Shown here: positions 46,790-64,000 of the stretch, piece after piece
Position numbering within the stretch: position 1 is the first letter of the stretch
Layout of the letters: every line of letters starts with the position of its first letter
Source of the DNA: an uncultured delta proteobacterium
GTDB taxonomy: Bacteria > Myxococcota > Myxococcia > Myxococcales > Anaeromyxobacteraceae
DNA length: 64,000 bases
Reading direction: 5' to 3'
Assembly: GCA_963828255.1 (NCBI GenBank)
Contig: CAWHDZ010000030.1
Location: forward strand, 142,574-206,573
Notes under the pieces: model-generated
Databases searched by the model: none
Told to the model about the DNA's origin: nothing
What the model saw: the letters and a program-made list of their open reading frames with translations, nothing else
Translations under genes and position numbers: made by a program

Positions 46790-48700
46790 ATGAGAAAGAC
46801 ATCATGGTCCGTCGGGATATCGCTTGTGGTGAGCGTCATCGTCCTCGGCTGCGGCGGTTCAAGCGGTAGTCAAAGCTCCACCGCGCCAGCAAGCCTGGCG
46901 GGCATCGCCTCATCCGACTCCCCGGTCGCCTCGGTGTCCCTGAAGGATTCGGCGTCGCCTCGGCGCCACGTCGTGACGACCCCTGACACCAGCGGGAGCT
47001 TCTCCTTCGACGTGGCGGATTTCACCCCGCCGTTCGCCCTGAAGGCGAAGACGGCTTCCGGAGCCGAGTACGCCATCGCGGCGAAGAGCGGTGTCGCCAA
47101 CGTCAACCCGATCACCACCGTTGCAGCCTACGCAGCCTACGAAGCCGATGATGACGATGATGACGACGATGCCGAGGAGTCCTGGTCGGGCGGCAGCGCC
47201 GGGTCATCCAAGGACATCGAGCGGGTGATCAAGAGCCTCAGCACGGTGCTCCGGCCGCTCTTCGACCTCTACGGGATCCGGCGCATCGGGGAGGACGACG
47301 AGGGCTGGAGACTCCGTGCCCTGCTCCGCGACGTGAGCTTCCAGGTGAAGTCTGGCGTGGTCACCGTGACGAACAGGGCGACCGGCGGCATCATCTTCAC
47401 CGGCAAGATCAGGGACCTCTCCTCGGGCACGTTCTACCCCGAGAACATGCCCGCTGGACCCGGCGGGGGCACGCCTTCGACCTGCACCGGGTTCACGTAC
47501 AACCCCTGGGGCGCCTGCCAGTCGAACAACACCCAGACCCGCACGGTGGCGTCCTCGTCCCCGAGCGGCTGCACGGGCGGGACGCCGGTCCTCACCCAGG
47601 CGTGCACCTACGTGCCGCCTCCGCCCGCTGCCTGCCAGTACACCTACACCAGCTGGGGCGCCTGCCAGTCGAACGGGACGCAGACCCGCACCGTGGTCAC
47701 GTCCGGCCCCACCGGATGCACGGGTACCCCGGTCCTCTCCCAGTCCTGCACCTACGTGCCTCCTCCGGTGACCTGCAGCTCCTTCACCTACTCGGCGTTC
47801 GGAGCCTGCCAGTCGAACAGTACGCAGACGCGCACCGTGCTGACCTCGTCCCCGACGGGCTGCACGGGCGGGACGCCGGTCCTCACCCAGGCGTGCAACT
47901 ACGTGCCGCCGGTGGTGACCTGCAGCTCCTTCACGTACTCGGCGTTCGGAGCCTGCCAGCCGAACAACACGCAGACGCGCACCGTGCTGACCTCGTCCCC
48001 GACGGGCTGCACGGGCGGGACGCCGGTCCTCTCCCAGTCCTGCACCTACGTGCCTCCTCCGGTGACCTGCAGCTCCTTCACCTACTCGGCGTTCGGAGCC
48101 TGCCAGTCGAACAGTACGCAGACGCGCACCGTGCTGACCTCGTCCCCGACGGGCTGCACGGGCGGGACGCCGGTCCTCACCCAGGCGTGCAACTACGTGC
48201 CGCCGGTGGTGACCTGCAGCTCCTTCACCTACTCGGCGTTCGGAGCCTGCCAGCCGAACAACACGCAGACGCGCACCGTGCTGACCTCGTCCCCGACGGG
48301 CTGCACGGGCGGGACGCCGGTCCTCACCCAGGCGTGCAACTACGTGCCGCCGACCTGCACGTACACGTACTCGGCGTGGAGCACCTGCTCCTCCAGCGGG
48401 ACGCAGACCCGCACCGTCGCGTCGTCCACGCCGGCCGGCTGCGCGGGGACCCCGGTCCTGACGCAGACGTGCACGCCTCCGACGCAGTCGTGCAACACCT
48501 GCCACGGGGTCCCTCCCTCCACCGGGGCGCACTCTTTCCACGGGAACACGTGCGGCAATTGCCACTCCGGATACACCTCGACGAGCGCCAACGCGGCGAC
48601 GCACATGAATGGCACGAAGGATGTGAACGGGACCCGGATCACCGCCTGGGATGCGTCGACCAAGCAGTGCACGGGGTGCCACGGCTCGGCTACCTGGTAG
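46790..48700 (+). CDS. Outer-surface lipoprotein triheme c-type cytochrome with seven Cys-rich tandem repeats
   Basis: AGGAG RBS, lipobox VLGC, C-terminal CNTCH, CGNCH and CTGCH with interspersed His ligands. Confidence 0.82.
   Translation: MRKTSWSVGISLVVSVIVLGCGGSSGSQSSTAPASLAGIASSDSPVASVSLKDSASPRRHVVTTPDTSGSFSFDVADFTPPFALKAKTASGAEYAIAAKSGVANVNPITTVAAYAAYEADDDDDDDDAEESWSGGSAGSSKDIERVIKSLSTVLRPLFDLYGIRRIGEDDEGWRLRALLRDVSFQVKSGVVTVTNRATGGIIFTGKIRDLSSGTFYPENMPAGPGGGTPSTCTGFTYNPWGACQSNNTQTRTVASSSPSGCTGGTPVLTQACTYVPPPPAACQYTYTSWGACQSNGTQTRTVVTSGPTGCTGTPVLSQSCTYVPPPVTCSSFTYSAFGACQSNSTQTRTVLTSSPTGCTGGTPVLTQACNYVPPVVTCSSFTYSAFGACQPNNTQTRTVLTSSPTGCTGGTPVLSQSCTYVPPPVTCSSFTYSAFGACQSNSTQTRTVLTSSPTGCTGGTPVLTQACNYVPPVVTCSSFTYSAFGACQPNNTQTRTVLTSSPTGCTGGTPVLTQACNYVPPTCTYTYSAWSTCSSSGTQTRTVASSTPAGCAGTPVLTQTCTPPTQSCNTCHGVPPSTGAHSFHGNTCGNCHSGYTSTSANAATHMNGTKDVNGTRITAWDASTKQCTGCHGSATW
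47480..48480 (+). repeat. Coding tandem repeat, 7 units of ~147 bp (49 aa); the central four are near-identical
   Basis: GTGACCTGCAGCTCC recurs at 47768, 47915, 48062 and 48209 (147-bp period, largely A-B-A-B). Confidence 0.95.
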
Positions 48701-48742
48701 CGGAAAGCTAGACCGGAGCCTGTCACCCGACAGGCCTCCCAC

Positions 48743-48781: not shown

Positions 48782-49141
48782 GCCCGTCGTCCCCGGGCCC
48801 GGCGCGCCTCCTCGATCTGGTTGCGAAGCCACTCGATCCCATCGATGCTGGCTGTCGTCTGCCCATCAGGGAAGCAAGCGTCCATCCACGCCCTCGGCTC
48901 CGTCGCGCACTTCCCGGCCAGCCCATGGCTCCCGTGCTCGCTGCGCACAAGATGAACCGTGACGCCAAGCAGCGCGGCGACCTGCATGTCCTTGAGCGAG
49001 GCCAGGGAGACCTGGCGGTGGGACCGTCACGCTGGCGGGATTCACCGCGACCGCAATGGTCCGGAAAACGAGAAGGGCGGAGGCGCCTGCGCGCCCCCGC
49101 CCCATTTTCACGGAGAGTCGGTGCTCTCCGTCCCCGTCAGG

Positions 49142-50003
49142 CTAGGGGATGGTCGACGCCGCGTCGATGATCGTCTGCCGGCCGTTCTCGAACGTGGTCG
49201 GCACCCAGCCCTGGCCGTAGGCGTGGATCCGGAGACCGAACTGCGTGGACTGCACGCCCGACTGGTGGCAGCTCATGCAGGAGGCCGCAGTCGCGCCCAT
49301 GAGCACGTCGTCGAGCTGGTTGCCCCACGGCGCGGCGCCCGGGTCGGTGATGAGGGCGACGCCCTTGGTGGCGTTCACCGTCTCCTGGACCCAGCCGTCG
49401 GAGTGGCAGGCCGCGCAGTTGTTGATGGCCTGCGGGTAGTGCACCTCGATGAAGTTGTGGTTCTTGGTCACCTGGGTGGTGATGGCGGTGTTGCACTGCG
49501 TCCCGGTGGCGGAGCTGGGAGCGCCCGACCCCGCGACGATCTGGCAACCCGAGCCCGGCCAGCTGGCGACCGCGTCGAGGGCTTCCTTGGTCCCGAAGAA
49601 GTAGATCCCGTTCGTCCGGTAGTAGACGAGCGCCATGCCGTTCTGGGCCGAGTGGATGGCGTGGACCATGTTCCGCATGTCATAGGACTCACCCACCTTG
49701 CCGTCGTAGGCCTCGGCGGCGGTGACGCCCATGTTGACCCGTACGTTCTTCTCGCTGGACGCCGGGTTGTGGCACTCGACGCAGAGGTTCACGTTGTCGA
49801 CGCGGTTGCCGCCGTGCTGGTACATCGAGCCCAGGTGGCAGTCGATGCACTTCGCGGTGTCCACGATGGAGCGGCGCAGGTCGGCCGGGGCCGGCAGGGC
49901 GCCGTCGGTGAGCAGGTACTCGCGGACCGGGCTCTTGGCGCGGACCTGGATGACCGAGAGTCCCGGCTTCCCGGCGTCCACGGCAGGCTGGAAGAAGACC
50001 TGC
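49142..50003 (-). pseudogene. C-terminal remnant of an OmcA/MtrC-family multiheme cytochrome
   Basis: RRSIVDTAKCIDCH, HGGNR, CVECHNP, MVHAIH, YPQAINNCAACH, CMSCH; no signal peptide or N-terminal half. Confidence 0.8.
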
Positions 50004-50463
50004 GGCGCTGCATGCTCTCCATGGCAGGGCGTGCAATGTCGAGCACCGCCATGACCGTGCCCGACATGTCGGCCGGGTTCAACCGGGTCATGACGGTCTG
50101 CACGGTGTGCACCGAACTCATCTCATCACCGTGCACACCGCTGGTCAGGGTGATGCGCTTGCCAGGCTTGGCTCCCTTGGCCACGATCACCGACACGCAC
50201 CAGTACTGTCCCGTGGACATCTGCACACCCTGGAAGTAGAGCAGGTGTTTCCTGCCAGGCTCCAGGTCATCGGTGCTCAGCGAGCTCACCACCTTCTTGC
50301 CGTTGATCACGTCGCCGGTGTAGACCGTGCCGATCCTGGCCGGGGTTGCAGGGGCGCTGACTTGGGCCTGCGCCATGCCGACGCCGGTCAGTGCAATCGC
50401 GGTGACGAGCAACGATTGCATGAGACCGAGGCGCCTGCCGCCAACCAGGAATTCTCCGAGCAT
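50004..50463 (-). pseudogene. N-terminal remnant of an AstE/AspA (M14) desuccinylase-family peptidase
   Basis: GAGGAG RBS, signal peptide, SGVHGDE Zn motif; similarity ends at MQRR, where the cytochrome remnant begins. Confidence 0.75.
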
Positions 50464-50774
50464 CGTCAGCTCCTCGCTGAAGGTGCGAGATTTCAAGTCG
50501 AAGGATGACATGACAGTTGAACCGCAAAAGTCCGCACTCAGGTGCCCGATCAGCCGCCCCCTTGGCGGGCATCGTGAATGGCGACCCTGGTGGCGGCGCT
50601 TCCACGCAAAGGCTCCCCAGGAACCTGATCATCCACTAGGCTCCTGCGGAGATGAAACGCCACTGCTCGACGACAACTAGACCTCCCCTCAGCCTTTGCA
50701 ATCCCGACGGATCCGCTCCCCAAAAAGTTGCCCGAAAGGTGGCTGGGGCGCAGATCGCCGCCGGCTGGTGCTGT

Positions 50775-52082
50775 CTAGCGCGGGCTTGAAGCCGCCGGGG
50801 CCGGCGTGAACAGCCGTTGCACGCGGTCCTTGAAGTCCGGCGGAAACGTCCAGTAGCGCGTGCCTTGGGGACCCTCCTGCGGCTCCAGGCCGCGGCGCTG
50901 CGGTTCGGCGCCCAGAAGCAGCAGCCCGAGCAGGTCGCCACTGACCCAGGGATCCTCGAACCAGAAGCCGTGCGAGCGCGGCGGCAGATTCGGAATGGCC
51001 GTGGGGTCCACCTTGATGATGTCGAAGCCGAGCTTGCGCGAGGCGTCGACGAGGAAGCCGGTCTGTTCCGCATCGAGCTCGGTCGGGTTGGCGCTGCCGG
51101 CGCGTGACGCGCGGTTCACGACGGCGGAAAAGCGCAGCGCCGAATCGTTCAGGTTGGCGGCGAGGCTCACCCGCCCGACGATGTCGATGTATTGCGCCAG
51201 TTCGCCGGCGAAGCGCCGGGTGTCGATGTCGGGCGCGGCGAAGTAGACCTGCGACAGCCGCAACCGCTGGCGCAGTTGTTCACGCGTTTCACCCGGCCGC
51301 GGCGTGGCCAGCTTGACCAGGCCCGGGCTGACGATCTGTGCACCCGCGCTGAACGCCACAACCTCGATCGACGACGCCTTGGTGTTCTCGGCCAGCGCCT
51401 CGATCATGCGAGCAAAGGGATCCACCGAGGCCGCAGCATTGCCGACGTCGGTGAAGTAGCGCAGGATCGACCCCGTCGATGGCCACAGGAACGACACCAT
51501 CACGACGCGCCGGCCGGTGAAGTGGCGCAACTGCGCGGCTTGCGCCGAGGCCTTCGCCACCGTGTTGTTGGCGCCGTGCACGTAGACCACCAGCTCCCTG
51601 TTCTTGCTGGCGGCCAGCGCCTTGTTGACCGAGGCGAAGAAGGCCTGCGCGTCGGCCGATCCCGCCACGCCGTCGCCCGGGCCCAGGGCGGCCATCTGCT
51701 CCAGGCCCTTGAGATGGACGATCGGGCGTTCGTCGGGGTCGTCGCTGGTCGACAGCCGGTGCAGGGTCTCCCAGTCCAGCGTGTCGTCGCCGATGCGCAT
51801 GTGGGCCACCCCCATGCGCAGGCGCTCGCTGGGCAGCAGGGTGTGCAGCGGTTCGGGCTTCTCGACCACGGCGCCGCGGTTGGTGACGTAGAACACGGGC
51901 AAGTCGGTGCCCTGCACCTGGTAGCCCGCACTCTCGAACGGGTCGACATCGCCCGAGCGGAAGCTCAACGGCGTGGGCATCAGCCGCACCGGCGATTCAC
52001 AACCGGCGAGCAGCAGGAGGACGCACAGCGCCGCCGCCCAGGATGTCGTGCCGCGCGGGCGGCCTGGCGGCTGTGTCAGCAT
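50775..52082 (-). CDS. DUF900-like alpha/beta hydrolase lipoprotein
   Basis: LAGC lipobox, FYVTNR, VYVHGANN, FLWPS, AFSAG, AAPDID. Confidence 0.8.
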   Translation of the reverse strand: MLTQPPGRPRGTTSWAAALCVLLLLAGCESPVRLMPTPLSFRSGDVDPFESAGYQVQGTDLPVFYVTNRGAVVEKPEPLHTLLPSERLRMGVAHMRIGDDTLDWETLHRLSTSDDPDERPIVHLKGLEQMAALGPGDGVAGSADAQAFFASVNKALAASKNRELVVYVHGANNTVAKASAQAAQLRHFTGRRVVMVSFLWPSTGSILRYFTDVGNAAASVDPFARMIEALAENTKASSIEVVAFSAGAQIVSPGLVKLATPRPGETREQLRQRLRLSQVYFAAPDIDTRRFAGELAQYIDIVGRVSLAANLNDSALRFSAVVNRASRAGSANPTELDAEQTGFLVDASRKLGFDIIKVDPTAIPNLPPRSHGFWFEDPWVSGDLLGLLLLGAEPQRRGLEPQEGPQGTRYWTFPPDFKDRVQRLFTPAPAASSPR

Positions 52083-52163
52083 GCCTCATTCTGCCGCAGT
52101 TCAGTCGTGCCGAGGTGTCCGTGATCTGGACCCGAGAAGGGCGGCTCGAGCTTCCGGCCTGTG

Positions 52164-53378
52164 TCACGGACGGATGAGTCCGTATCGCCAGACGTCGTTG
52201 TCGACGCGCAGGTAGTTGGTGAGGTCCGTGAAGTCGAAGGTCTCCCGATCTCCCCCGAACGTGTAGATGGCCGTGGGCACCCCGTGGATCTCCTCGGTCA
52301 CGGAAAGGGCGGCGAAGTCGTACTTGATCTGATCGGGCGAGGTCGCGTTCCAGGGCGGGGTGGGCAGCCGGACCCAGCGGGCTCCGTCGAAGCTGGCCCA
52401 CATGTCGACGGGATTCTGGAGCAGCCCGAAGCCCCCGAAGCACACGATGTGGAAGGCCGCGACCACGCAGGCGTGGCCGGGGCGCGGCGACCAGCCCGCG
52501 GCAGGCGTCACCAGTTCCCAGGTGACGCCGTCGCGGGTCCGCCACACGTCGTTGAAGTAGGGCGGGTTGCAGAAGGGGAGCGGCTCGCAGACGAAGCCGT
52601 TCTCTCCCCCGAGCAGGTAGATATAGCCGCCCTTCGTCACCGCAGCGGCGCCGGCCCGCGGCGACCAGGGCGCATGGTCGGCGAGCTTCTTCCAGGTCCG
52701 GCCATCGCGCGACTTCCATACGTCGTTGAAGTAGATGCGCTGCGGCGGGCCGCCGATGACCGCCGAGTCGTCGTTCTGGGACCCGCCAAAGACGTAGATC
52801 TCGTCGCGAAGAACGACCGTGCTCAGCCCGGCCCGCCCGGCCCACGGCGCGTGGTCGGTCATCTGCGTCCAGCGGACGCCGTCCCGGCTCCGCCATACGT
52901 CGTTGAAGAACGTGGACCTCGAGACGAAAGGCGGGCAGTCGGGAACGAAGGGGGGGCAAGCGTTGGGGACCACGGCGTAGTCCTGGCCGCCCAGGACGTA
53001 CATGGCCTCGCCCTTGGTGACCGCGCCGAAGTACGCGCGGGGCGCCCAGTGGCCGGGCTCGTCGCTGGCGAGGAGCTGGTTCCAGGTCGAGCCGCGGTCC
53101 TTGCTCGTCCACACGTCGCCCCAGATGACGCTGTCACCCGGGACGGGAGGGAAGGTCGGAGGGTTGGGCGTGCGCCCGCCCATCAAATAGAAGCGGTCGC
53201 CGAGGGACATGACCTTCAGGCCGGCTCGGGGGGACCACGGAGCCGACGGCTGGACCTCCGCCCACCCCACCGACGGCTTCTGCCCATGTTCACCGCCGGT
53301 TGCATCTGCGATCCGCGGCAGCGCCGTCCCTGCAAGCGCTGCGGTGAACCCGAGGATCACGAACGGTTGCCTTGTCAT
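52164..53378 (-). CDS. Secreted Kelch-repeat beta-propeller protein
   Basis: GGAGG RBS, signal peptide, repeated W.PR.G...Y.LGG...NDVW.SRDG..W units. Confidence 0.82.
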   Translation of the reverse strand: MTRQPFVILGFTAALAGTALPRIADATGGEHGQKPSVGWAEVQPSAPWSPRAGLKVMSLGDRFYLMGGRTPNPPTFPPVPGDSVIWGDVWTSKDRGSTWNQLLASDEPGHWAPRAYFGAVTKGEAMYVLGGQDYAVVPNACPPFVPDCPPFVSRSTFFNDVWRSRDGVRWTQMTDHAPWAGRAGLSTVVLRDEIYVFGGSQNDDSAVIGGPPQRIYFNDVWKSRDGRTWKKLADHAPWSPRAGAAAVTKGGYIYLLGGENGFVCEPLPFCNPPYFNDVWRTRDGVTWELVTPAAGWSPRPGHACVVAAFHIVCFGGFGLLQNPVDMWASFDGARWVRLPTPPWNATSPDQIKYDFAALSVTEEIHGVPTAIYTFGGDRETFDFTDLTNYLRVDNDVWRYGLIRP

Positions 53379-53549
53379 GTGGACCTCCCGGGTGACGCCT
53401 AGTCGGACCGGCGCCCTGGCGCAACCCAGTACCGGGAGCGAAGACGGGCCTGGGGCGGCAAGCGATCGTTGACTGCCGAACGCTCGCCCAACCGGCCCTG
53501 GCCCCGCTCCAGGCTGCCGAGGTGGACCGGCGGCTTCGCTTGTTCGTGG

Positions 53550-53729
53550 ATGCACGACTGGGCGCGAACCGGGCTCGTAGGATCGTCGATCCGGGAGGCG
53601 TCGGGCCGCGGGGCGCGTCGTGTTTACTCATTCGAGGATGTGGTGGCGCTCCGCGTCGTCGCGGGGTTGCTCGGCGCGGGAGTGTCCCTAGAGGCCGTGC
53701 GCCGCGCGGTCGGATACCTTCAGCGCCAC
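53550..53729 (+). pseudogene. MerR-type HTH fragment
   Basis: DWARTGLV..GRGARRVYSFEDVVALRVV..L..GVSLEAVRRAV; lacks the first HTH helix and the C-terminus. Confidence 0.6.
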
Positions 53730-53749
53730 ACCATCACTCCGCGCGGAAG

Positions 53750-53835
53750 TACGCCGGTGCTACGGGCGGTGCCGGGAGAGACAAGAAGGGCCGGAGACTC
53801 CTCGAAGAAACCCGAGGAGTCTCCGGCCAGTGGAC
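53750..53835 (+). pseudogene. Remnant 3' tail of an older integrase gene
   Basis: TPVLRAV-x16-SPA is colinear with the intact integrase tail at 63921-63998. Confidence 0.75.
53789..53828 (-). terminator. Element-supplied terminator downstream of the tRNA 3' end
   Basis: Perfect 16-bp stem GGCCGGAGACTCCTCG/CGAGGAGTCTCCGGCC followed by CTTCTTGT on the minus strand. Confidence 0.75.
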
Positions 53836-53880
53836 TGGAGCGGGAAACCGGATTCGAACCGGCGACCCTCAGCTTGGGAA
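53836..53880 (-). repeat. att core: 3' half of tRNA-Gly(CCC), not a complete tRNA
   Basis: Reverse complement TTCCCAAGCTGAGGGTCGCCGGTTCGAATCCGGTTTCCCGCTCCA runs from the anticodon loop to CCA; the 5' half is absent. Confidence 0.92.
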
Positions 53881-54023
53881 CGGTTTTCACCGAAAGTCCT
53901 ACCACGTGCAGGGATGTGCAACCCTTTGCAATCCCTACGGATCCGGTCTCGGACGCCGTCCAGCGGTCCCGCGAAAACCCACTCCTTTTCGAGGATTTTG
54001 CTACGCCCTTGCTACGGAGAAAT

Positions 54024-54248
54024 ATGACCGTGGGTACGACTCCGGAGGGGTTCCTGACCGTCCGGGAGGCGGCCAGGCGGCTCAAGGTCTCGACGGCGAC
54101 GGTCTACAAGGCCTGCGCACGGGGGGAGATGCCCTGCGTGCGGGTGCTGAACGTGCTGCGGATACCCGAGGGAGGGTTGGGCGGAGGACGCTCGTCCTGC
54201 CTCACCGTGGAGACCCCGCGCCACCGCCATGTTCCGCGGGACGGTTGA
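54024..54248 (+). CDS. Excisionase-like HTH (HTH_17) domain; probably the detached C-terminus of the integrase
   Basis: FLTVREAARRLKVSTATVYKACARGEMPCVRV..LRI; the frame is open upstream through the att core. Confidence 0.75.
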   Translation: MTVGTTPEGFLTVREAARRLKVSTATVYKACARGEMPCVRVLNVLRIPEGGLGGGRSSCLTVETPRHRHVPRDG

Positions 54249-54279
54249 TGGGGCGTCTTGCGTGGGAGATCCTGTGCCG

Positions 54280-55893
54280 ATGACTCGGGAGAGGGAACTC
54301 GAAAGGCTTCGGGCCTGGATGGAGACGGTCGAGGCGGAGCGCCTCGAGTTCAAGGAAGCCAAGAACAACTTCGACTTCGAGAAGCTCCTCAAGTACTGCA
54401 TCGCGCTCGCCAACGAGGGTGGTGGCGTGCTGGTGCTCGGCGTCAGCGACAAGAGGCCACGCAGGGTCGTCGGTACCCGAGCGTTCGAGGACATTCAGCG
54501 GACGAAGGTCCAGCTCGTCGACAAGCTGCGCCTGCGCGTCGACGTCGACGAGATCCAGCACGGTGACGGCCGGGTGCTCGCCTTCACGATACCTTCCCGT
54601 CCGATCGGCATGCCCCTGAGCTTCGACGGCGCGTACCTCATGCGCGCGGGCGAGTCGCTCCTGGCCATGACTCCGGACCGGCTCCGGCGGATCTTCGACG
54701 AGGCGTTGCCCGACTACTCCGCGGAACCCGTGATCGGGGCTCGAGACGAGGAGCTCGACCCGGTGGCGATAGAGAAGCTCCGCGAGCTCTGGCGAAGGAA
54801 ATCCGGAAATCCTCAGATCGAGAGGATGTCGCGGGAAGAGCTTCTCCGTGATTCGGAGCTCGCCCCGGATGGAAGGATCACCATCGCGGCCCTGGTCCTC
54901 CTTGGGACGAGAGCCGGGCTTGGTCGGCACCTGGCGCAATCGGAGACCGTGCTGGAGTACCGGTCTTCGGACACGACGATTGCCCCGCAGCAGCGCGTGG
55001 AGTTCCGGGAAGGGTTCCTTCTCTACTTCGAGAATCTTCTGCGAATGATCATGGCGCGCAGCGAGGTCCAGCAGTTTCGCAACGGCCTCATCATCCGAGA
55101 CATCCCGACCGTCAACGAGGCAGCGACCCGGGAAGCGATCCTGAACGCTCTCAGCCACCGCGACTACCGTCAACTCGGGTCGGTCTTCATTCGACAGTTT
55201 CCCCGGCGCATCGAGGTGGTGAGTCCGGGCGGATTTCCCCCCGGCGTGACCGAAGAGAACATCCTCTGGAAGCAGGCCCCCCGGAATCGGCGCCTTGCCG
55301 AGGCGCTCTCCAGGTGCGGCTTCGTCGAGCGCTCCGGGCAGGGGGCGGATCGCATGTTCGAGGAGTCGATCCGAGAGGGAAAGCCACGTCCCGACTTCTC
55401 CGGAACGGATGAGTACCAGGTGTCGGTAGTCCTTCGCGGAGAGGTGCAGGACGAGGCATTCCTGCGCTTCCTTGAGCGAGTCGGGCAGGAAACCCAGGCG
55501 GCATTCTCGACGACCGATCTCGTAGTCCTCGATCTGGTTCATCGTGCCGAGCCTGTCCCGAGGGCGCTCGCACTCCGAGTTCCGCTTCTCTTGGAGAAGG
55601 GTGTCCTCGAGAAGCGGGGCCGGGCGAAGCTGATGCTGTCGAGCCGCTTCTATGATTTCGTGGGGAAGCGTGGCGAGTACACCCGGCGCCGTGGCCTCGA
55701 CAAGGCCCACGCCAAGGCATTGCTCGTGCAGCACCTGAAGGAGTTCGAATCGGCGACCATCCAGGAATTCGAGCAGGCGCTACCGGGCCGAAGCCGGGAT
55801 TCGATTCACAGGCTGCTTCGGGAACTGAAGGCTGAGGGGAAGGTCGAGGTTACCGGGAAGAAGCGCGGAAGCCGCTGGGTCCCCAAGGGTTGA
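54280..55893 (+). CDS. Schlafen/AlbA_2 domain + RecG-C/HATPase_c_4-like domain + wHTH protein
   Basis: EAERLEFKE, ALANEGGG.L.LGVSD, REAILNALSHRDY, SPGG, PRNRRLA, VERSGQG. Confidence 0.85.
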   Translation: MTRERELERLRAWMETVEAERLEFKEAKNNFDFEKLLKYCIALANEGGGVLVLGVSDKRPRRVVGTRAFEDIQRTKVQLVDKLRLRVDVDEIQHGDGRVLAFTIPSRPIGMPLSFDGAYLMRAGESLLAMTPDRLRRIFDEALPDYSAEPVIGARDEELDPVAIEKLRELWRRKSGNPQIERMSREELLRDSELAPDGRITIAALVLLGTRAGLGRHLAQSETVLEYRSSDTTIAPQQRVEFREGFLLYFENLLRMIMARSEVQQFRNGLIIRDIPTVNEAATREAILNALSHRDYRQLGSVFIRQFPRRIEVVSPGGFPPGVTEENILWKQAPRNRRLAEALSRCGFVERSGQGADRMFEESIREGKPRPDFSGTDEYQVSVVLRGEVQDEAFLRFLERVGQETQAAFSTTDLVVLDLVHRAEPVPRALALRVPLLLEKGVLEKRGRAKLMLSSRFYDFVGKRGEYTRRRGLDKAHAKALLVQHLKEFESATIQEFEQALPGRSRDSIHRLLRELKAEGKVEVTGKKRGSRWVPKG

Positions 55894-56010
55894 TTTGCCG
55901 CAGAGGTCGGTGAGCGCGGCAAATCGCTGCGGCAAAAGACCACGTAACTGCCTGAAATTCGGTCGATCGGCATCCGGCGCTCCTCCGCAAAACACGACAC
56001 CCCGGCCAGA

Positions 56011-56412
56011 TCATCCACTTCGGGGCCGTGCCCTGCGCCTCGAGCCGGTGCCGGCTCGCCGAGTCGCTCGTCTCGCGGCGGGCGCCGTGCCCCCGGACCA
56101 TCGCCGGGTGAGCCTTCCGAGGTCCCCCTGGGCTGGAGGGTGCAGGGAGAAGAGCGCTCGAAGGTAGAGGTCGAGGGAAGCGCCCGGGGCCCCATCCTCG
56201 AGCTTGGCGACGCGCGACTGGCTCGATCCCATCCGCTCTGCCAGGGCCTCCTGGGAGAGGCCGCGCCGTTGGCGAAGTGACCGGACCGCATCGCCGAGGG
56301 CGAGCTTGGTGGTGACCAGCCCAGACTCCAGGTGGGAGAGCCCCAAGAACTGGTCACCAGTCCCGAGCTTCCATCCCGCCCTCACGAGTCGCTTTCGTCG
56401 CATCCGGTCCAT
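56011..56412 (-). CDS. XRE/HigA-like HTH protein (orphan antitoxin)
   Basis: GWKLG...FLGL, LRQRRGLSQEALAERMGSSQSRVAKLE. Confidence 0.8.
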   Translation of the reverse strand: MDRMRRKRLVRAGWKLGTGDQFLGLSHLESGLVTTKLALGDAVRSLRQRRGLSQEALAERMGSSQSRVAKLEDGAPGASLDLYLRALFSLHPPAQGDLGRLTRRWSGGTAPAARRATRRAGTGSRRRARPRSG

Positions 56413-56494
56413 TTGCTCCCATTCATCATGTCCGATTCGACATGCGTCAAGCTCGTGGACGAGGTGCCGTGCGCGACGCCCTTCCCCGTGGTAG

Positions 56495-56995
56495 ATGCGA
56501 AAGGTGTTCACGCTCCGATGCACGGGGAAGCTGCTCAGACGACTCGGGGCGTCGCCTTCCACGAGCGTGGAGCAGCCCACCACCGTGCTCGGGGACTGGT
56601 ACGCGACACTCATTCACGCGCCCCGACTCCAGGTCGTCCTGGTCGTGAGCGAGAGGACGCTCCTTCCGGTCGTGGTTCCCGCACGGGAGGCAAGGACGCT
56701 CCTCCCCCGCTTCCGTGTCGCGCTCGCGGCCATGCTCATCAAGCTCGATGTCCGGCCGTCGGTCGTGGAGCGGGAAATGCACGCGATGGATTCCGTCGCC
56801 GTCGGGAAGACGCGAAGCCGGACCGTCCTCGGATCGATGAACGACTTCATCCGGATGAGCAAGGGGCAGCCTTGGCCGCCTCGCTCCCTCGAGGATCTGT
56901 CGCTGGAACTGGCCTGTGCGCCCTGCGGTCCCATCGGCATGAGGAGCCCGGACGGCCTGACCCGAGACCTCCTGAACTCGGAGGGACTCCAGTGA
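56495..56995 (+). CDS. DUF6933-like hypothetical protein
   Basis: LRCTGKLL, LGDWYA, SERTLLPV, KTRSRTVLGSMND. Confidence 0.65.
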   Translation: MRKVFTLRCTGKLLRRLGASPSTSVEQPTTVLGDWYATLIHAPRLQVVLVVSERTLLPVVVPAREARTLLPRFRVALAAMLIKLDVRPSVVEREMHAMDSVAVGKTRSRTVLGSMNDFIRMSKGQPWPPRSLEDLSLELACAPCGPIGMRSPDGLTRDLLNSEGLQ

Positions 56996-57001
56996 GCCAC
57001 C

Positions 57002-57178
57002 GTGGAGACGCTGGCGCTGTCCGGCGGCTACTCCGTGAGCGTGCCCGAACTTCCGGAGTGCTTCACGGAAGGGGAGACCGCCGTGGAAATCCGCAGGATG
57101 GTCCGGGAAGCGATCGGGCTTTGGCTAGAAGCCGCCAGTACGCCGTCCGCAGCCCGGCGGCGGGAAGGCTCGCGGTGA
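57002..57178 (+). CDS. HicB-like antitoxin domain (short, possibly truncated)
   Basis: Hand translation GGYSVSVPELPECFTEGET..EAIGLWLE; below the ORF-track size cutoff. Confidence 0.68.
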   Translation: METLALSGGYSVSVPELPECFTEGETAVEIRRMVREAIGLWLEAASTPSAARRREGSR

Positions 57179-57786
57179 GTCGGTGCTGCCAGTTGGTCCA
57201 CGACCAGCGAGGGGGTCGTCGCAGAAAAGAGCGTCCTGGTCCGCGCGGACCAGAGCACCGAAATGCGACCCGCGGGAGGCACCGCACGCGGCACCCGGGC
57301 GAAGTCCGACGCTCGGGCCTCTCAAAAAGGGGCCGCCTGGTCCGCGCGGACCAACGAGCGAAATTCCGAAGATCCAGCGTTCTGGGGTGCCCTCCGGGGT
57401 GCCCTGCGGAGAGGGCAGGATTGGGGACGAGGCCGCTGGCAGGATTGAAGGCAGGGATGCGCTCGTAACTCCGCGAAACTCGTGCCCCAGCCCCGCCACT
57501 CTTCACCTGGCGTGCACACCGACGAACGGGGTGCCATCCGCCCGACCCCTCACCCCCAACCACTGGGGAGAGGGGTCGGGCAGCTGGCACCAAAGCAAAT
57601 GAAAGAGAGATGGGTGGCGGGGCTGGGGCGAGTTTTCGGGGAAGGAAGGGAGACCCTGGACAGAGCGGGAACGAGGAAGGGAAGAAAGGTTCAGGGGTAA
57701 GGGGAAAACGGAGATCTGAGGTCGACCGGATTGGAATGGAATGCAGAAATGGGGTGAGTGATCAGAGCGCGGCCGTAGGTACGGAC

Positions 57787-57828
57787 CGGATACATGGGTA
57801 ACGAAAAGCGCTGGAGACATAGGTGACA
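57787..57828 (-). mobile_element. Isolated IS481-like terminal inverted repeat (no transposase)
   Basis: Minus strand TGTCACCTATGTCTCCAG-N8-GTTACCCATGTATCCGG: TGT terminus with a repeated subterminal motif. Confidence 0.5.
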
Positions 57829-57989
57829 ACGAACTGGCGATGTCGGGGACGAGCAGTCGAGAGATCGGGGAGTCGTCGTCCTGCAGATGGGAGAAGAGCG
57901 GCCCGGAGATAGGTGACTGGAGCTCCAGGAGAGGGGTGACGGCCGGTCGCGACATCGGTGACTGCCCTACCACCTCGTTGGGGCAGGAC

Positions 57990-58268
57990 GAGGTCGAGAC
58001 GGTAGTTCCAGGGCTCGCGACGGCGCTTCAGGCGAACCCGCAACGGGACATCATCTCTGCTGTGGACCTGGAGACATGGGTCGCGTCCCTACCCGACGCG
58101 GATCAGGAACTCCTGGCGATGCGGCAGGCGGGCTCCACCCTCACCGACATCGCCGAGCACCTCGATGTATCCATCTCGAAGGTCTTCTCGCGGATGAGGT
58201 CGCTGGGACTGATACTGGCCGACCGGGCGGGTCTGCCGGTCGCGGGGACGACACCGTCGGTGGCGTAG
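57990..58268 (+). pseudogene. Sigma region-4-like HTH C-terminal fragment
   Basis: LPDADQELLAMRQAGSTLTDIAEHLDVSISKVFSRM; upstream sequence looks non-coding. Confidence 0.55.
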
Positions 58269-58550
58269 ATGCAGTTGGGGACGGCCAGGGTGGCCGCTTC
58301 CCCCTTAGCCTTCATTCCGGGCGACGTTCAAGGGCATCGCTACCCTGTGCGAAGTGGTCGGTGGCGGAGCAGGACGCGGTTCGTTGGGCTCACGCCGTGG
58401 TCGAAACGGCGAAGGCCCCGCCCGCCACCGTTGGCAAGGGGGCCTCCATCCGGCCGAACCTGTGCGGCGTCGGTGGACCGGACTCGGCGGACACTACGCC
58501 CACCCTTGAGGCAAGAGGAAAGACACCGCCCCTATCCGCAGGGCAAGGTT

Positions 58551-59810
58551 CTACTTCTTCGCTTTGTTCACTGTCGGCACAGGAAACTTTCCAGTCTGGA
58601 TGTCCTCATCGCCGCCATACATGCGGAGCAAAAGATAGAAGTTTTCCTTGGGGACCGGCAGGAAGTTGGTGTCCTCAGCCTTGCCCTTGGTGTCATGGCT
58701 CAGGCGGAGCGTGACGGTACCATCGGGGTTCAACTTCACATGGCGGTCGCCCCGGCTATGGCGATTGAGATCGTTGGCGATCATCAGCTTGGTTTTCGAC
58801 CCGTAGGCGGTCACCGACCAGAACTGGGAAACCTTGGGCGGGGTGAAGGTGACGGAGTAGTCATTCGCGCCGTTCAGGATGTCGCCGTTCTGGTCCTTGA
58901 CCATCTGTACGTAGGAGGCTTCGACAGGCGGAGCCCCCCACTGACCAATGTAGGTGGCAACCTGGAACGGTATGCGGTCAGCGTGTCCAAGACCTTCGCG
59001 GGTGCCGAGTGCGTTGCTGGCGTTGGTCAGTGTCGGGAGAGTTTCCTTGAGCTTCGCAATCACGTGCTGCTCGGCGATCTCCGCGGCGGCCAACTGCTCG
59101 GGGGTGAAATCCTTCTTGCCCGCGCCGATGCCGGACGCCTCCAGCCCCTTGAGCCAATGGGCGTCTGCTGTGGCCATGGTGCCGTCCGCCAGCACGAAGT
59201 TCACGCGCTCGAGCCAGGAGTTGCCAGCGGGGGGGACAAACTGTCGAACCTTGGGCTTGGGCCCGCCTTGTCCCAGGAACTCGCTCAGGGTGCGGATGTT
59301 CCAGTCGTCCACGTAGGTCAGGGCTTTCTTCTCGTCCTCCACGCCAGTCGCCATCACTCTTCCCATCAACTTGATGAAGTTGCTTTCGACGCGGACGACC
59401 TCCGTGACGCCGTCCGGGACCTCGCCCTTCCAGGCTTGGTTCGCGAACATGAAGCGGCCCCCCTTGGGGCCGCGCGTCCGCTTGCCAAAGAGTGTGGTGG
59501 TGTAGTGCCCCATGTCCATGGTGTGGAGCACCCAGTAGCGCCCGTCGTCGTGGTCGGGCACGGAGACGATCACCGGCTCGGCCGCGACATCCAGCCAGCC
59601 CATCAGGTGCAGGGTGTCGTTGTTGATGCTCACGTGCGCCGTGTATTTGTCGTCGGCGAGGTGACGGATGATTTGAAAACGGTTGGCCGGAGAATCCGGT
59701 TCCACCAGTGTCTTGTAGAGATGCTTGTAGGCTTCGTCTATGCCGTAGGCATACAGGTACGCGCGGTCGGCGATGGCCTGAAGTTCAGGTGAGACTTGGC
59801 GAGCTTGCAT
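58551..59810 (-). CDS. DUF1254/DUF1214 domain protein
   Basis: AYLYAY, NNDTL, EPVIVSVP, FWSVTAY, NFLPVP, LRMY. Confidence 0.85.
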   Translation of the reverse strand: MQARQVSPELQAIADRAYLYAYGIDEAYKHLYKTLVEPDSPANRFQIIRHLADDKYTAHVSINNDTLHLMGWLDVAAEPVIVSVPDHDDGRYWVLHTMDMGHYTTTLFGKRTRGPKGGRFMFANQAWKGEVPDGVTEVVRVESNFIKLMGRVMATGVEDEKKALTYVDDWNIRTLSEFLGQGGPKPKVRQFVPPAGNSWLERVNFVLADGTMATADAHWLKGLEASGIGAGKKDFTPEQLAAAEIAEQHVIAKLKETLPTLTNASNALGTREGLGHADRIPFQVATYIGQWGAPPVEASYVQMVKDQNGDILNGANDYSVTFTPPKVSQFWSVTAYGSKTKLMIANDLNRHSRGDRHVKLNPDGTVTLRLSHDTKGKAEDTNFLPVPKENFYLLLRMYGGDEDIQTGKFPVPTVNKAKK

Positions 59811-59879
59811 GTGTGGCTCCTACATGACGGTGGGTCGGTGGTTCAGCCCGACGGTGGTACTGACGCCCCGGTTGCTTTT

Positions 59880-61775
59880 CTAGTGTTCCAGGACGTCGGG
59901 GTACTTCGCCTTGTCCCTGGGTTCGAGCGCGGCCGGCGGATGGGCCGACGGGCGCAGGAGGTGGCTGCGATCCAGCAACTGGCCGAGCTCGGCCAGCGCC
60001 TCGCTCCCCTTCGCGGGGAGGCCCTTCCCCAGGACGAAGTCGGCCAGCTCGCGTCGCGACACCTCGACGTGCGCGGGGCCCTTCGCCCCGGCCTCGGAGA
60101 TCACGAGCACGCTGTTGCGCAGCTCGACGCGGCGAATGCGCGGATCGCCCTCGGCAGCGATGGTGAACACCTGCCGCTTCCCCTCTGCCTTGCGCGGGTC
60201 CAAGAGGTAGCGAACGAACTGTAGATTTTCGTCCACGGACGCCGCGGCCAGCTGCTCGGCGCTCGGGGTCCCGACGACCGCGCGGATCGCGTCCAGCGTC
60301 ACCGGCTGTCCCTCGGCCATCATCCGACCCTCCAGTTGCAGCGCCTCCGTGATGTAGAACCCGCGCGCGTTGGCGGAGGTCGTGCGCTGTCCGAGGGCGC
60401 GCGCCGCGGTGGCCCGCGTCTTGCGCGCGCCGGCGTCCGCGGGGTCGAGCCTCAGGAGCAGGGAGGTGAGCTTGAGGCTCCAGCGCCAGTTCGCGAGCCC
60501 GCCCTTCCGGGCCGCTGCTGCCGCGGCCTTCCGCACCGCGCCGTTGCCTCCCATCATCTCGACGGTCCGGGCGGCCTCCTCGCGAAGCGAGAGCGGGTTG
60601 ATCTCGTAGACGTCCCCGCCGAACCAGCCCAGGTTCCCGTTGACGACCTGGCGGACGTGGCTCTCGACCTGCCCGTACGTCTCGCGCCCCTCGCGCATGT
60701 GGGGCGGCATGTAGAGCTTCTCGGCCGCCTCCCTCCCGTCCATGCCCCGGGCCATGAGGCGCAGGGTCTGGTCGTTGATGAGCTGGACCTGGTCGACCGA
60801 CAGCTCGACCGCCTCCCGCACGGCCTTCTCGCCCTTGAGGGTCGGCCCGTGGACGTCGAGGAGCACCTCGGCGTTCTTCGACTCGATCCAGCGCGCGTCG
60901 TCGACGAAGGTCACCGGGTCGCGGTACCGCCCGCCCCGGAGCGTGTAGATGTTGAAGACGGTCTCCGCCACCATGAAATTCGTCACGAGCAGGCGGTGAC
61001 GGGGGAAGTAGAAGCCGACGCTGTCGGACGCGTCCGAGCGATTGGGAGCGACCTGGACGGGCTCCCCGGCGATCACGAGGTCGAGGATCTTGCCGTTCTC
61101 GAAGAGGCGGGTGGGTGGCTGGTAGCTCGACTCGGCCAGGAGCTTCTCCGGCGTGAACCCGAGCAGGTTGGGGAAGGCGTCCGGGCCTGTCGGAGGATGG
61201 AAGACCCCGAACTGGGCCACCGCCCGCGCCTGGTACAAGCCGCTCAGGACGCTGACCCCGGTCGAGGTCCGGCGGTTGCGGTCGAGGAACTCGTGGCCCC
61301 AGATCTCGGTTCCCGCGTCCAGCCAAGCCCCGGTACCGTCGGCGTAGTGCCAGTGCGTGAGCAGGATGGCCGCGACCTTGATCTTCTTGCCCAGGGTCCG
61401 CTCGAGCATCTCCCGCATCTCGGCGGCTGCGCGCGTGGAGTCGCCCGTGTCGACGACGATCCAACCGCCCGGGGCCTCGATGGCGAAAGTGTTCGCGATG
61501 CCCCAGCCTCTTAGCGCATACACGCCTGGGATGACGGCTTCCGCGACCTTCTTGTCGGTGATGCCCCACAGCGCGTTGGCCCGGAGCGCCGCAGGGGTGG
61601 TGATGACGCCATTCGGCCCGGTGACGGTCTCCATGGTCAAGGACGGGCTGTGCCAGGAGGTTTCTGCCGCCGCGGCGCGGTCCCTGCTCACCGCGTCATC
61701 GGCGCGGGCAACGGGAGATGTTCCCAGCGCCAGCACGGCTACGGCGCAGAAAGTCATCACAGTCTGACGGTGCAT
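59880..61775 (-). CDS. Alkyl/aryl-sulfatase-like MBL-fold protein (SdsA1/BDS1 family), exported
   Basis: Signal peptide; VVDTG, NIYTLRG.YRD, DQTLRLM.G, YGQV, GWFGG, SANARGFY. Confidence 0.78.
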   Translation of the reverse strand: MHRQTVMTFCAVAVLALGTSPVARADDAVSRDRAAAAETSWHSPSLTMETVTGPNGVITTPAALRANALWGITDKKVAEAVIPGVYALRGWGIANTFAIEAPGGWIVVDTGDSTRAAAEMREMLERTLGKKIKVAAILLTHWHYADGTGAWLDAGTEIWGHEFLDRNRRTSTGVSVLSGLYQARAVAQFGVFHPPTGPDAFPNLLGFTPEKLLAESSYQPPTRLFENGKILDLVIAGEPVQVAPNRSDASDSVGFYFPRHRLLVTNFMVAETVFNIYTLRGGRYRDPVTFVDDARWIESKNAEVLLDVHGPTLKGEKAVREAVELSVDQVQLINDQTLRLMARGMDGREAAEKLYMPPHMREGRETYGQVESHVRQVVNGNLGWFGGDVYEINPLSLREEAARTVEMMGGNGAVRKAAAAAARKGGLANWRWSLKLTSLLLRLDPADAGARKTRATAARALGQRTTSANARGFYITEALQLEGRMMAEGQPVTLDAIRAVVGTPSAEQLAAASVDENLQFVRYLLDPRKAEGKRQVFTIAAEGDPRIRRVELRNSVLVISEAGAKGPAHVEVSRRELADFVLGKGLPAKGSEALAELGQLLDRSHLLRPSAHPPAALEPRDKAKYPDVLEH

Positions 61776-62171
61776 GTGGTTTTCCCGCTCCCCAGGCGCC
61801 AAGGCCTGAAGCCCTTTTCTAACGCCGTCGCCTCACCATGCAACGACTGGCAGACGCTCGTGGGAGCGGGGTCGAAGGAGTGGCCGAGGCCGTTGCCCAA
61901 ACACTGCCCAATGGGCGACCGAGGCTGCCCTCCTGGAAGTGTCAGCAGTGACCACGCCCCACCGCCAGGTGCCCGAGATGACTACGCCTGACCACTGGGA
62001 TCGGCCAGGCGTGTTCACTCCTGGGCGATCCCGGCTTACTGGGCTGCACCCGTCTGGGAAGTGCTGCCGCCGGATGTCCAGGCAACAGGGCCTTCGAGTC
62101 TAGACTTGACGAAGTAAGCACCCGTTGCCCTTGATCCGGGATTGCGTTTGGTATAGACGTTATAAGTACGT

Positions 62172-62504
62172 ATGGCATACTCGCGCCGACCCCAAGAGCC
62201 CGAACCCTTCTCCACGACCACCGAGAAGCTGATGCAGACGTTCCGGATGTCGCGAGACCTGGTCTCGTTCCTGAAAGGGGAGGCCAGCGCCAGGGGCAGT
62301 GACCTCACCGCCTACGTCACCCGCGTGCTGGAAGGCCTGCGCAACTTCTACGGGCTCCCCTTGCCCGCCGCGCAGGTCCTCGAGGAGGACCGCAAGGCGC
62401 TCGGCGTCGATCGCGCGGACTACCTCCACCACCTGCTCTACGAGCGCAGCATCGCCGTCCGGGAGAAGGGCCCAGGCTTCGACTCCCCACGGAAGAAGAG
62501 GTGA
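62172..62504 (+). CDS. Small element-encoded DNA-binding protein (RHH-like)
   Basis: QTFRMSRDLV..LK.EA...GSDLTAYV strand-helix-helix pattern; first gene of the xis-int operon. Confidence 0.55.
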   Translation: MAYSRRPQEPEPFSTTTEKLMQTFRMSRDLVSFLKGEASARGSDLTAYVTRVLEGLRNFYGLPLPAAQVLEEDRKALGVDRADYLHHLLYERSIAVREKGPGFDSPRKKR

Positions 62505-62507
62505 CCC

Positions 62508-62723
62508 ATGATCGACCTCGCACCGGACGGCTTCGAGACGCTGTGGGACGCCCGGGACGTGGCTCGCTACCTGAAGGCGAGCCGCTCCTGGGTCTACCAG
62601 AAGGCCGAGTCAGGCTTGCTGCCGTACGTGAAGGTCGGCGGGCTCGTCCGGTTCGTGCCGGGGCGCATCCGCGAGATCGCCATGGCCTCGGCAGGAACGC
62701 CGGGCCCGGGGCAACAAGGGTAG
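62508..62723 (+). CDS. Excisionase (HTH_17/AlpA-like)
   Basis: LWDARDVARYLKASRSWVYQKAESGLLPYVKVGGLVRF; directly upstream of int. Confidence 0.85.
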   Translation: MIDLAPDGFETLWDARDVARYLKASRSWVYQKAESGLLPYVKVGGLVRFVPGRIREIAMASAGTPGPGQQG

Positions 62724-62738
62724 GGGAAGGAGCCCGCC

Positions 62739-64000
62739 GTGGCGTCGCCATACCTCAAGGACGGGAAGTGGTACCTGCGCTGGAAGGACGACTCCGACCT
62801 CTGGCGAGGGATGGTCTCGACGGCGCGCACGAAGGCAGAGGCGCGGCGGCTCCAGGCCGAGCTCGAGCGGAGGGCCGAGCGGGTTCGCCTCGGCGTCGAG
62901 GCTGCGCTTCCCGAGGACGGCGGCGGCTCCCTCGCCGAGCTCATGAAGTGGTGGCTGAAGAACTACTCGAAGCCGCTCGCCTCCCACGTCACGAACGAGA
63001 GCGCGATCCGGACCCACATCCTCTCGTCCGACCTGGCGCCGCTTCCGCTCACCGCCATCACAGCCGGCCGCATCGAGGCCTTCCTGCAGGCGAAGAGCAC
63101 CAAGGTCTCGCCGCAGATGGTGAACCACGTCCGCGGGTACTTCTCGCGGGCCTTCAACGCCGCGCGCCGGGCTGGTCGCTTCCCGGGAGCGAATCCCACG
63201 CTCGACGTGCGCAAGCGGAAGATCCCGAAACGGAAGCCCGACTACCTGCGCCCCCACGAGGTCCCGCTCCTCCTGTGGGCGCTCGACCCGCGCTGGAGGC
63301 CGCTCTTCGCCACGGCCGTCTACACCGGTCTACGCAAGGGCGAGCTGCTCGCGCTGCGGAAGTCGGACGTCGACCTCCCGCGCCAGATGCTGATGGTGGC
63401 CCGATCCCACGAGCGCGACACGACGAAGGGCGGCCACGCCGACGGCATCCCCATCGCGACCGAGCTCCTGCCCTTCCTGCGGATCGCCATGGCGGCCTCT
63501 CCCTCGGGGCTGGTCTTTCCGCGTCCCGACGGAACCATGATGCGACGGGACGTGAACCTCGAGATGACGCTCCGCCGGGCGCTGGGCCGCGCGGGAGTGG
63601 TGGAGGGGTACCGGCACAAGTGCCGTCGCCAAGGCTGCGGACACGAGGAGGCGGCCGCCGACCAGGAGACCAGGCGCTGCCCGAAGGATCGCCGGAAGCT
63701 CTGGGTGAAGCCGGTGGTGCGCCCCATCCGCTTCCACGATCTGCGCCACACGACGGCGAGCCTGCTCATGATGAACGGCGCGAACCTGCCGGCCGTGCAG
63801 CGCATCCTTCGCCACAGCGACCCGAAGATCACGACCGAGCTCTACGGGCACCTCGCTCCGGAGTACCTCCGTGCGGAGGTCGATCGCCTCAGCTTCGGGC
63901 CGGCGGTGGCGCGATTTGCTACGCCGGTGCTACGGGCGGTTTCAGAACAGAAGAAGATGGCCGGAAATGCCTCGCAGAATCGCGAGTCATCTCCGGCCTG
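62739..64000 (+). CDS. int: Tyrosine integrase (Mx8/Mx9-like), open to the window end
   Basis: Absent from the ORF track. GTG at 62739 after AAGGAG; TGLRKGE, TTK, HDLRHT, LRHSDPKITTELY; no stop before 64000. Confidence 0.95.
   Translation, partial: MASPYLKDGKWYLRWKDDSDLWRGMVSTARTKAEARRLQAELERRAERVRLGVEAALPEDGGGSLAELMKWWLKNYSKPLASHVTNESAIRTHILSSDLAPLPLTAITAGRIEAFLQAKSTKVSPQMVNHVRGYFSRAFNAARRAGRFPGANPTLDVRKRKIPKRKPDYLRPHEVPLLLWALDPRWRPLFATAVYTGLRKGELLALRKSDVDLPRQMLMVARSHERDTTKGGHADGIPIATELLPFLRIAMAASPSGLVFPRPDGTMMRRDVNLEMTLRRALGRAGVVEGYRHKCRRQGCGHEEAAADQETRRCPKDRRKLWVKPVVRPIRFHDLRHTTASLLMMNGANLPAVQRILRHSDPKITTELYGHLAPEYLRAEVDRLSFGPAVARFATPVLRAVSEQKKMAGNASQNRESSPA

Follow-up and report, generated by a model that had tools for sequence, protein, structure and literature searches.

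The stretch of DNA considered here (the window) comprises 64,000 nucleotides (nt) of a contig from an uncultured member of the Anaeromyxobacteraceae (assembly GCA_963828255.1, contig CAWHDZ010000030.1). It is predicted to carry a 10-kb mobile island whose own integration site sits inside its own integrase gene, and which extends from 53836 to about 64050 with tRNA-Gly(CCC) as the predicted target. We think it somewhat probable that the integrated island would encode an integrase (Int) of 438 amino acids (aa), and the excised circle a 559-aa protein ending in an excisionase-like helix-turn-helix (HTH) domain, and that this tethered HTH would bias the free circle toward integration. That the Int–HTH fusion itself is real and selected we regard as very probable.

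The gene for the tyrosine integrase starts at 62739 on the forward strand, and its frame was confirmed to be open through 64000, as claimed in the original prediction, which was made from the letters of the window alone. Position 64000 is also the final base of the contig (C30), and the following bases are absent from the assembly. Another contig of the same genome (C28 of G000) opens with a minus-strand tRNA-Gly(CCC), the only one found in the assembly. The first 45 nt of this contig (C28:1–45) are 100% identical to window 53836–53880, the left attachment (att) core, which on the forward strand reproduces the 3'-terminal 45 nt of the tRNA in antisense. Identity stops at the anticodon loop (53874–53880), where we infer the crossover region to be, and the core has the same end point in most relatives. 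Because the core is repeated at the start of C28 and at the left end of the island, the assembly break most likely occurred at the att repeat. All seven close relatives, with int matches of 89–98% identity, have a stop-free 7-nt spacer between a conserved GGCC and the core, and in four of them it begins with TGT. The missing gap is therefore predicted to be 5 nt, with the core starting at 64006. This agrees with the original prediction, which had expected a tRNA-Gly/att copy after int at about that position; the start of C28 carries it. A related locus (L061) has a matching int end followed by tRNA-Gly(CCC).

When the ends were joined in silico with N in the 5-nt gap, the integrated Int came to 438 aa, ending in the antisense tRNA, and the circular Int to 559 aa, ending in HTH_17, with 122 new residues replacing one, close to the 120 or so foreseen. 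The open frame from the left core into the HTH_17 match (E 3.6e-9), also part of the earlier claim, was confirmed. Other gap lengths gave no HTH fusion in this join. The 438-aa form is the commonest full-length one among the 15 members listed of its 90% protein cluster, which has 31. The catalytic set R199, K230, H333, R336, H359 and Y369 is present and is invariant or nearly so in 58 relatives; all six residues lie upstream of the att core, and only the C-terminus is swapped by the crossover. The domain layout is of the lambda type, with N-terminal arm-binding, core-binding and catalytic domains in the model of P0001, the closest natural long form, which is 97% identical to the window Int (the binding functions are predicted). 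This model, whose best Foldseek match is lambda Int (E 4e-10), has three strands and a helix at residues 1–50, and consists of a lambda-like Int, a disordered stretch at 395–492 and a folded HTH. The best fold matches of the Int model are the lambda and Tn1549 integrases.

The HTH at the other end of the island (54024–54248, forward strand) is of the winged Xis/BldC-like type, with an HTH_17 match at 54051–54170 and a degenerate last helix. It scores above the curated cut-offs for both HTH_17 (37.2 vs 27 bits) and TIGR01764 (34.7 vs 28.8 bits). Among solved structures it is closest to Pukovnik Xis (E 1e-5) and BldC, with weak support from Foldseek, and the DNA-contacting positions are the most conserved columns of the domain. 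The tail-side att arm (53881–54023, forward strand), which would be translated as the linker of the long Int, is disordered in the P0001 model. In eight Gly-targeting elements, the ratio of nonsynonymous to synonymous polymorphism (pN/pS) was 0.95 in the linker, as against 0.29 in the HTH and 0.25 in the catalytic region, which indicates that the HTH is under purifying selection and that the linker is conserved only as DNA. The linker is interrupted by stop codons in only 1 of 30 elements in the frame of the HTH, compared with 16 and 21 of 30 in the other two frames. A search within 12 codons of the HTH found a start codon plus Shine-Dalgarno motif in none of the 27 related tails, as against 7 of 22 xis genes. 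Since the HTH is conserved as a protein while its start is not, and since its frame is held with that of Int across the att site, the best interpretation is that it forms the C-terminal end of Int in the circle. The identity of the tails also co-varies with that of their integrases (rho 0.58, n = 24). Many Myxococcales tails (L029, L085, L214, L225, P0048 and P0141) carry a short LRxLxGG-like motif ahead of the HTH, which suggests that translation of the tail starts upstream.

The in-frame join was surveyed in 101 loci (L002–L102) from metagenome, genome and viral scans, after exclusion of 76 distant viral loci, and in 60 stretches of related genomes and six stretches of the window's own genome. 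Among 158 matches to the integrase C-terminus, 119 had an antisense tRNA within 500 nt, corresponding to 98 distinct ends, and in 93 of these 98 the int frame runs into the tRNA. An upstream copy of the core was found for 33 ends; for the other 65 there was none within the fetched DNA. With a profile built from natural tails, an HTH was called after the upstream core in 30 of the 33 related Myxococcota elements with both ends recovered. Twenty-seven of the 30 HTH tails join to Int in frame and free of stops, two of them (L006 and L223) with partial HTHs. The three failed joins contain the usual peptides, shifted by single-base indels, possibly through decay or sequencing error. The related elements are 3.1–18.3 kb long, a range bounded by the length of DNA fetched, and their tRNA targets include Gly, Arg, Pro, Met and Asp.

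The integrases of this family read the tRNA in three different frames (58, 12 and 20 of 90), and the tail was found in the frame of its own Int in 25 of 28 elements, two of the 30 having been dropped for want of a landmark. When the tails were shuffled among elements the mean was 16.7, and none of 20,000 shuffles reached 25, although the elements are kin and the test consequently overstates the significance. The frame is kept over 170–330 nt of variable linker, in three reading frames.

The separate excisionase-like gene expected at 62508 was confirmed by profile scan (xis, 62508–62723, forward strand), with HTH_17 and TIGR01764 matches above cut-off. Such a gene lies upstream of 56 of 67 full-length int genes in related elements. 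Within one element the tail HTH and xis share only 34% identity. In one cluster member, P0133 (496 aa), xis is joined to the Int N-terminus, through either a deletion or an assembly error.

The predicted attP, the attachment site of the circle, contains several elements besides the core. An arm-type tandem repeat on the Int side (63915–63935, forward strand) is read as FATPVLR, and is matched on the tail side by a tandem repeat at 53997–54017 (forward strand), with TGCTACG twice, which has the same position in related elements. The two lie at about −91 and +161 from the tRNA 3' end, or ≈125 bp either side of the anticodon loop, and their sequence is element-specific: own arms match in 30 of 31 elements, foreign pairs in 17%. 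They are likely to be arm-type sites for the N-terminal domain of Int. A terminator-like hairpin (63959–63998, minus strand; −30.8 kcal/mol) lies 3' of the restored tRNA and inside the int frame, and hairpins with z below −2 are found at 58 of the 98 related ends. Between the core and the tail arm, short repeats near 53896, 53916, 53958 and 53967, with a spacing of ≈10 bp, stand out family-wide in column conservation and are candidate sites for Xis, the tail HTH or integration host factor (IHF).

Attachment sites that cut an integrase gene are known from myxophages. In Mx8, attP lies inside int, and integration gives the gene a new 3' end while Int stays active, with altered specificity (PMC6070905); a similar principle is described for Mx9 (PMC6070905, PMC11610982 and PMC4383910). 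The Mx9 genome note (PMC10281127) does not discuss the domains of Int. Mx9 Int (AAP78666.1, 548 aa) is 39% identical to the window Int over 197 catalytic-region residues. As in the islands, an antisense tRNA-Gly(CCC) core with the same anticodon loop lies inside the 3' region of int, and an HTH_17 domain follows the core at residues 489–537, scoring 52 bits with the tail profile and 40 bits with the xis profile. Mx9 differs from the islands in being a phage; its core corresponds to the 5' half of the tRNA, in a different reading frame, and the HTH follows close behind the core. In the islands it is the 3' half that is duplicated, the linker is long and there is a xis gene apart from the tail. 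The int of Mx9 has no annotated xis-like neighbour. The original prediction had placed the gain of an HTH in a non-phage island: the scanned open reading frames (ORFs) of the element indeed include no phage structural genes, but the arrangement is not the first of its kind, since the Int of phage Mx9 has HTH_17 after the core. The layout already exists in the genome of a real virion, on public record in GenBank since Mx9 was deposited.

Mx8 (IntP/IntR, AAK94421.1; Uoi/Xis) resembles the islands in having an HTH_17 excisionase just upstream of int and a core flanked on either side by arm-like tandem repeats, but is a phage and only distantly related. Its C-terminal swap reportedly replaces 112 aa by 13 aa, and its xis is said to be needed for excision. 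A profile scan found no HTH_17 in the C-terminal segment of Mx8 Int, and the C-terminus of Mx4 Int was likewise without an HTH match. Lambda-type heterobivalent integrases (lambda, L5/Pukovnik and the RdfS system of integrative and conjugative elements) share with the islands the three-stranded N-terminal domain, arm-like repeats and an HTH_17 directionality factor; in these systems int is not known to be cut by att, nor the directionality factor to be anything but a protein of its own. Among other arrangements, mycobacteriophage BPs reportedly has attP within a coding sequence, so that the integration state sets a protein C-terminus, although the swapped gene is said to be the repressor and the swapped piece a degradation tag, not a DNA-binding domain on Int. 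The archaeal suicidal integrases of SSV1, pTN3 and pT26-2 also have the att site inside the integrase gene and a tRNA target (PMC8371274). In these the split removes the catalytic part and inactivates Int, whereas the short form of the island Int keeps all catalytic residues. Among the members of the HTH_17 family are RdfS, Pukovnik Xis and BldC, all of which form oligomers on DNA (PMC11963761). A literature search, which did not extend to the original J. Bacteriol. reports on Mx8 and Mx9 or to the TIGER paper, turned up no account of an HTH tail in integrases of this kind, and passages of PMC5861418, PMC10111431 and PMC12884075 contained nothing further on the matter.

The layout suggests a mechanism in which the short Int, together with Xis, would excise the island, and the resulting circle would join int to the tail and encode a long Int with a tethered Xis-like HTH. 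The tether, a flexible linker of roughly 100 residues, would be nothing other than translated attP DNA. The HTH of the long Int could then bind the short repeats between core and arm, and, once bound, might either bend attP or keep Xis off it, thereby favouring recombination between attP and attB. Integration would strip the HTH from Int again. That the job of the HTH is directionality is suggested by its conservation, and we consider it probable on balance. More tentatively, a Myxococcota-wide family of islands may store a directionality factor at the far end of the island and attach it to Int only when excised; the tethered Xis paralogue would drive integration and antagonise free Xis, and tandem arrays would make hybrid Ints with the HTH of a neighbour.

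The evidence on the excised form is mixed, and several observations weigh against this scheme. No excised circle was seen, and the contigs of four pond and sediment runs contained no informative attP join. A contig joint from 63997 to 53836, with eight letters between, is in frame, but it depends on the 45-nt core alone, so that attP and an integrated end are indistinguishable. A second joint, from 63919 to 53750, was rejected as attP, as it corresponds to the int tail of a strain mapping onto a relic at the left flank (described below), and the low cover at 52.3–53.7 kb relative to 54.2–57 kb was not used as evidence. None of seven contigs had the terminal overlap that marks circular contigs. 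Among viral contigs, 4 of 80 loci could be analysed (L099–L102, the rest being too distant) and had no fused HTH; the tail profile gave four weak matches to viral contigs, and Mx9 Int as a query found no relative there. Int homologues ending in HTH_17, which the original prediction had proposed as a check, do exist and speak for the scheme: 14 protein clusters have Phage_integrase followed by a C-terminal HTH_17, six of them with matching arm peptides on both sides, and these six could be circles, tandem copies or assembly paths. In P0001 the arms are mismatched: the one on the tail side corresponds to a different Int in that genome, and the tail is followed by new cargo. P0001 is therefore a tandem-junction hybrid and was rejected as proof of excision. 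Tandem arrays are common in this family, and some of their inner junctions give hybrid long Ints: of ten inner junctions without a tRNA, five form a fused ORF, one has a stop and four are out of frame. Since such junctions also yield fused ORFs, the long forms in the databases do not prove excision. The window tail itself matches only profile positions 1–40 of the 51 in HTH_17, with a Gly-rich run in place of the last helix, so that the complete domain of the original prediction did not hold; this helix is present in the P0001 model and in most relatives. An Xis-like fold would ordinarily favour excision rather than integration, and Mx8 swaps its C-terminus without HTH_17, so that an HTH is not required in such systems. 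Finally, the repeats near 53916 may resemble a binding site for host IHF and might just as well be one.

The same evidence might fit a fusion with another purpose. If the HTH were a transcription regulator, through which the long Int made by the circle represses or activates the operon of xis, int and the 110-aa gene upstream of them and senses the integration state instead of acting on the intasome, the frame and selection evidence would fit equally well. BldC, which regulates transcription, and Xis are equally near relatives of the tail, and recombination directionality factors of the HTH_17 type double as regulators (PMC11963761). However, promoter scans found no sigma-70-like promoter, the conserved candidate sites lie inside attP, beside the tail, and a separate candidate regulator is already present upstream of xis; we regard this explanation as rather unlikely. 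The tethered HTH might also serve the free form without changing the direction of recombination, through self-oligomerisation, Int stability or protease targeting, or the resolution of tandem arrays. The frequency of such arrays, their hybrid long Ints and the head-to-tail filaments that HTH_17 proteins form (same source) are in keeping with a role of this kind, but the inner junctions, with 4 of 10 out of frame and one with a stop, are unlike the cognate joins, and conservation is highest at the positions that contact DNA, making this quite improbable.

Alternatively, the HTH could be encoded by an independent gene with a start of its own, as a second directionality factor or a regulator, and the in-frame fusion would be incidental or secondary. 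The window tail has a GGAG followed by ATG at 54024, a possible separate start, and G039 has GTG in the same place; some ATG or GTG occurs within 12 codons of the HTH in 13 of the 27 tails, myxobacterial starts need not carry a Shine-Dalgarno motif, and the linker is not conserved as protein. On the other hand, no start position is conserved, the Shine-Dalgarno motif is absent from all 27 tails, G033 has the same tail without a start, and a free gene has no need of a frame kept across a variable linker in three different registers. We consider a stand-alone gene unlikely. Lastly, this particular copy might make no long Int at all, owing to a TGA or frameshift in the gap, or because C28 is not the continuation of the contig. 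Bases 64001–64005 are missing from the assembly, and the join across them was inferred from relatives; only the 5-nt gap gives the fusion, and 3 of 30 relatives are frameshifted. Given the stop-free spacer in all seven close relatives, with its TGT start in four, the single tRNA-Gly(CCC) of the assembly and the matching arrangement in L061, such a failure is highly improbable.

The C-terminal swap of Mx8 and Mx9 is decades old, and the role of the segment that is lost has stayed vague. In this large family of small islands, the segment that is exchanged can be recognised as a DNA-binding domain under selection, and the question becomes directly testable. If the proposed scheme is true, it is a natural case of directionality controlled by building and dismantling a domain fusion, with relevance to one-way integration tools for myxobacteria. 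It also carries a warning for annotation, as ‘orphan xis’ genes at island ends and 438- versus 544-aa integrases would be two states of one gene. The arm repeats separate true attP joins from tandem hybrids.

In the original prediction, the TPVLRAV..SPA peptide at the left end was taken as the tail of the element. The sequence that encodes it (53750–53835, forward strand) lies to the left of the left core; it is consequently outside the excisable unit and never enters attP. We rejected it as part of the element and identified it as the relic 3' end of an older related integrase, with an arm repeat, a hairpin (53789–53828) and a 7-nt spacer. Equivalent relics are found in related genomes: the junction of relic, core and the same tail recurs in G030, G033 and G039, while G028, G031, G036 and G040 have bare relics beside the tRNA. 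Positions 53750–53828 and 63920–63998 form a 79-nt pair with 76% identity, and the resemblance between the relic and the end of int owes as much to DNA elements as to protein. Joined to the relic, and also outside the element, is a decayed MerR-like HTH frame (53469–53749, forward strand) that matches MerR_1 at profile positions 19–65 of 69 only, and the ORF at 53469–54248 is made up of this decayed piece, the int relic and the tail. Further to the left, a 26-nt repeat at 50693–50718 (forward strand), 92% identical to 53923–53948, is a relic of the tail arm of an older element. No att core was found upstream of it in the window sequence, and it likely marks the left end of a decayed neighbour island. 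This island (50693–53835) contains the tail relic, a hydrolase-like ORF (50775–52082), a Kelch-repeat ORF (52164–53555), the MerR fragment and the int relic.

The cargo of the island (54229–61802) was scanned against Pfam and PHROGs, in a scan confined to the window element. The cargo consists of a Schlafen/AlbA_2 protein with a RecG-C-like ATPase, an XRE-type HTH, DUF6933, a HicB-like fragment, a sigma70-region-4-like HTH, a DUF1254/1214 protein and an alkyl-sulfatase-like metallo-beta-lactamase (MBL) hydrolase. The Schlafen/AlbA_2 and RecG-C-like ATPase gene (54229–55893) directly follows the tail and is possible defence or regulatory cargo. No virion or packaging genes were found among the 11 main ORFs of the element, and the scanned ORFs likewise included no phage structural, replication or transfer genes, relaxase or type IV secretion genes. 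A 110-aa Myxococcota protein (62172–62504, forward strand), usually encoded just upstream of xis and int, is a possible ribbon-helix-helix regulator and a candidate repressor of the xis–int operon. It has no Pfam match, and its Atlas lead is RHH_9 at 0.90; homologues were found in 35 fetched loci and at six places in the window's genome.

Four further integrases of the family are present in the same genome (G000) at other tRNAs (C34:143331–144506, C17:53936–55045, C3:87759–88817 and C7:246474–247172), and the tail of the C3 element lacks an HTH. At L034:11261–11358, ARAGORN called tRNA-Pyl(cta) where the core reads as tRNA-Gly(CCC), probably a miscall at the junction. Residues H293, C295, C300 and C314, in a beta-strand insert of the catalytic domain (window 63615–63680, Int residues 293–314), are nearly invariant; the same His and Cys residues are found in the Mx9 and Mx4 integrases and resemble a zinc site. 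Integrases of the family decay by internal deletion, with the arm and hairpin beside the tRNA retained (L017:32–400, L246, L247, L248 and L249), perhaps because the hairpin terminates the tRNA transcript. Outside the island, a gene at 46791–48701 encodes a long Cys/Thr-rich repeat protein (C-x-S-F-T-Y-S-A-F-G-A-C-Q repeats) with CxxCH motifs at its end, and adjoins a reverse-strand multiheme-like ORF near 49140–50030.

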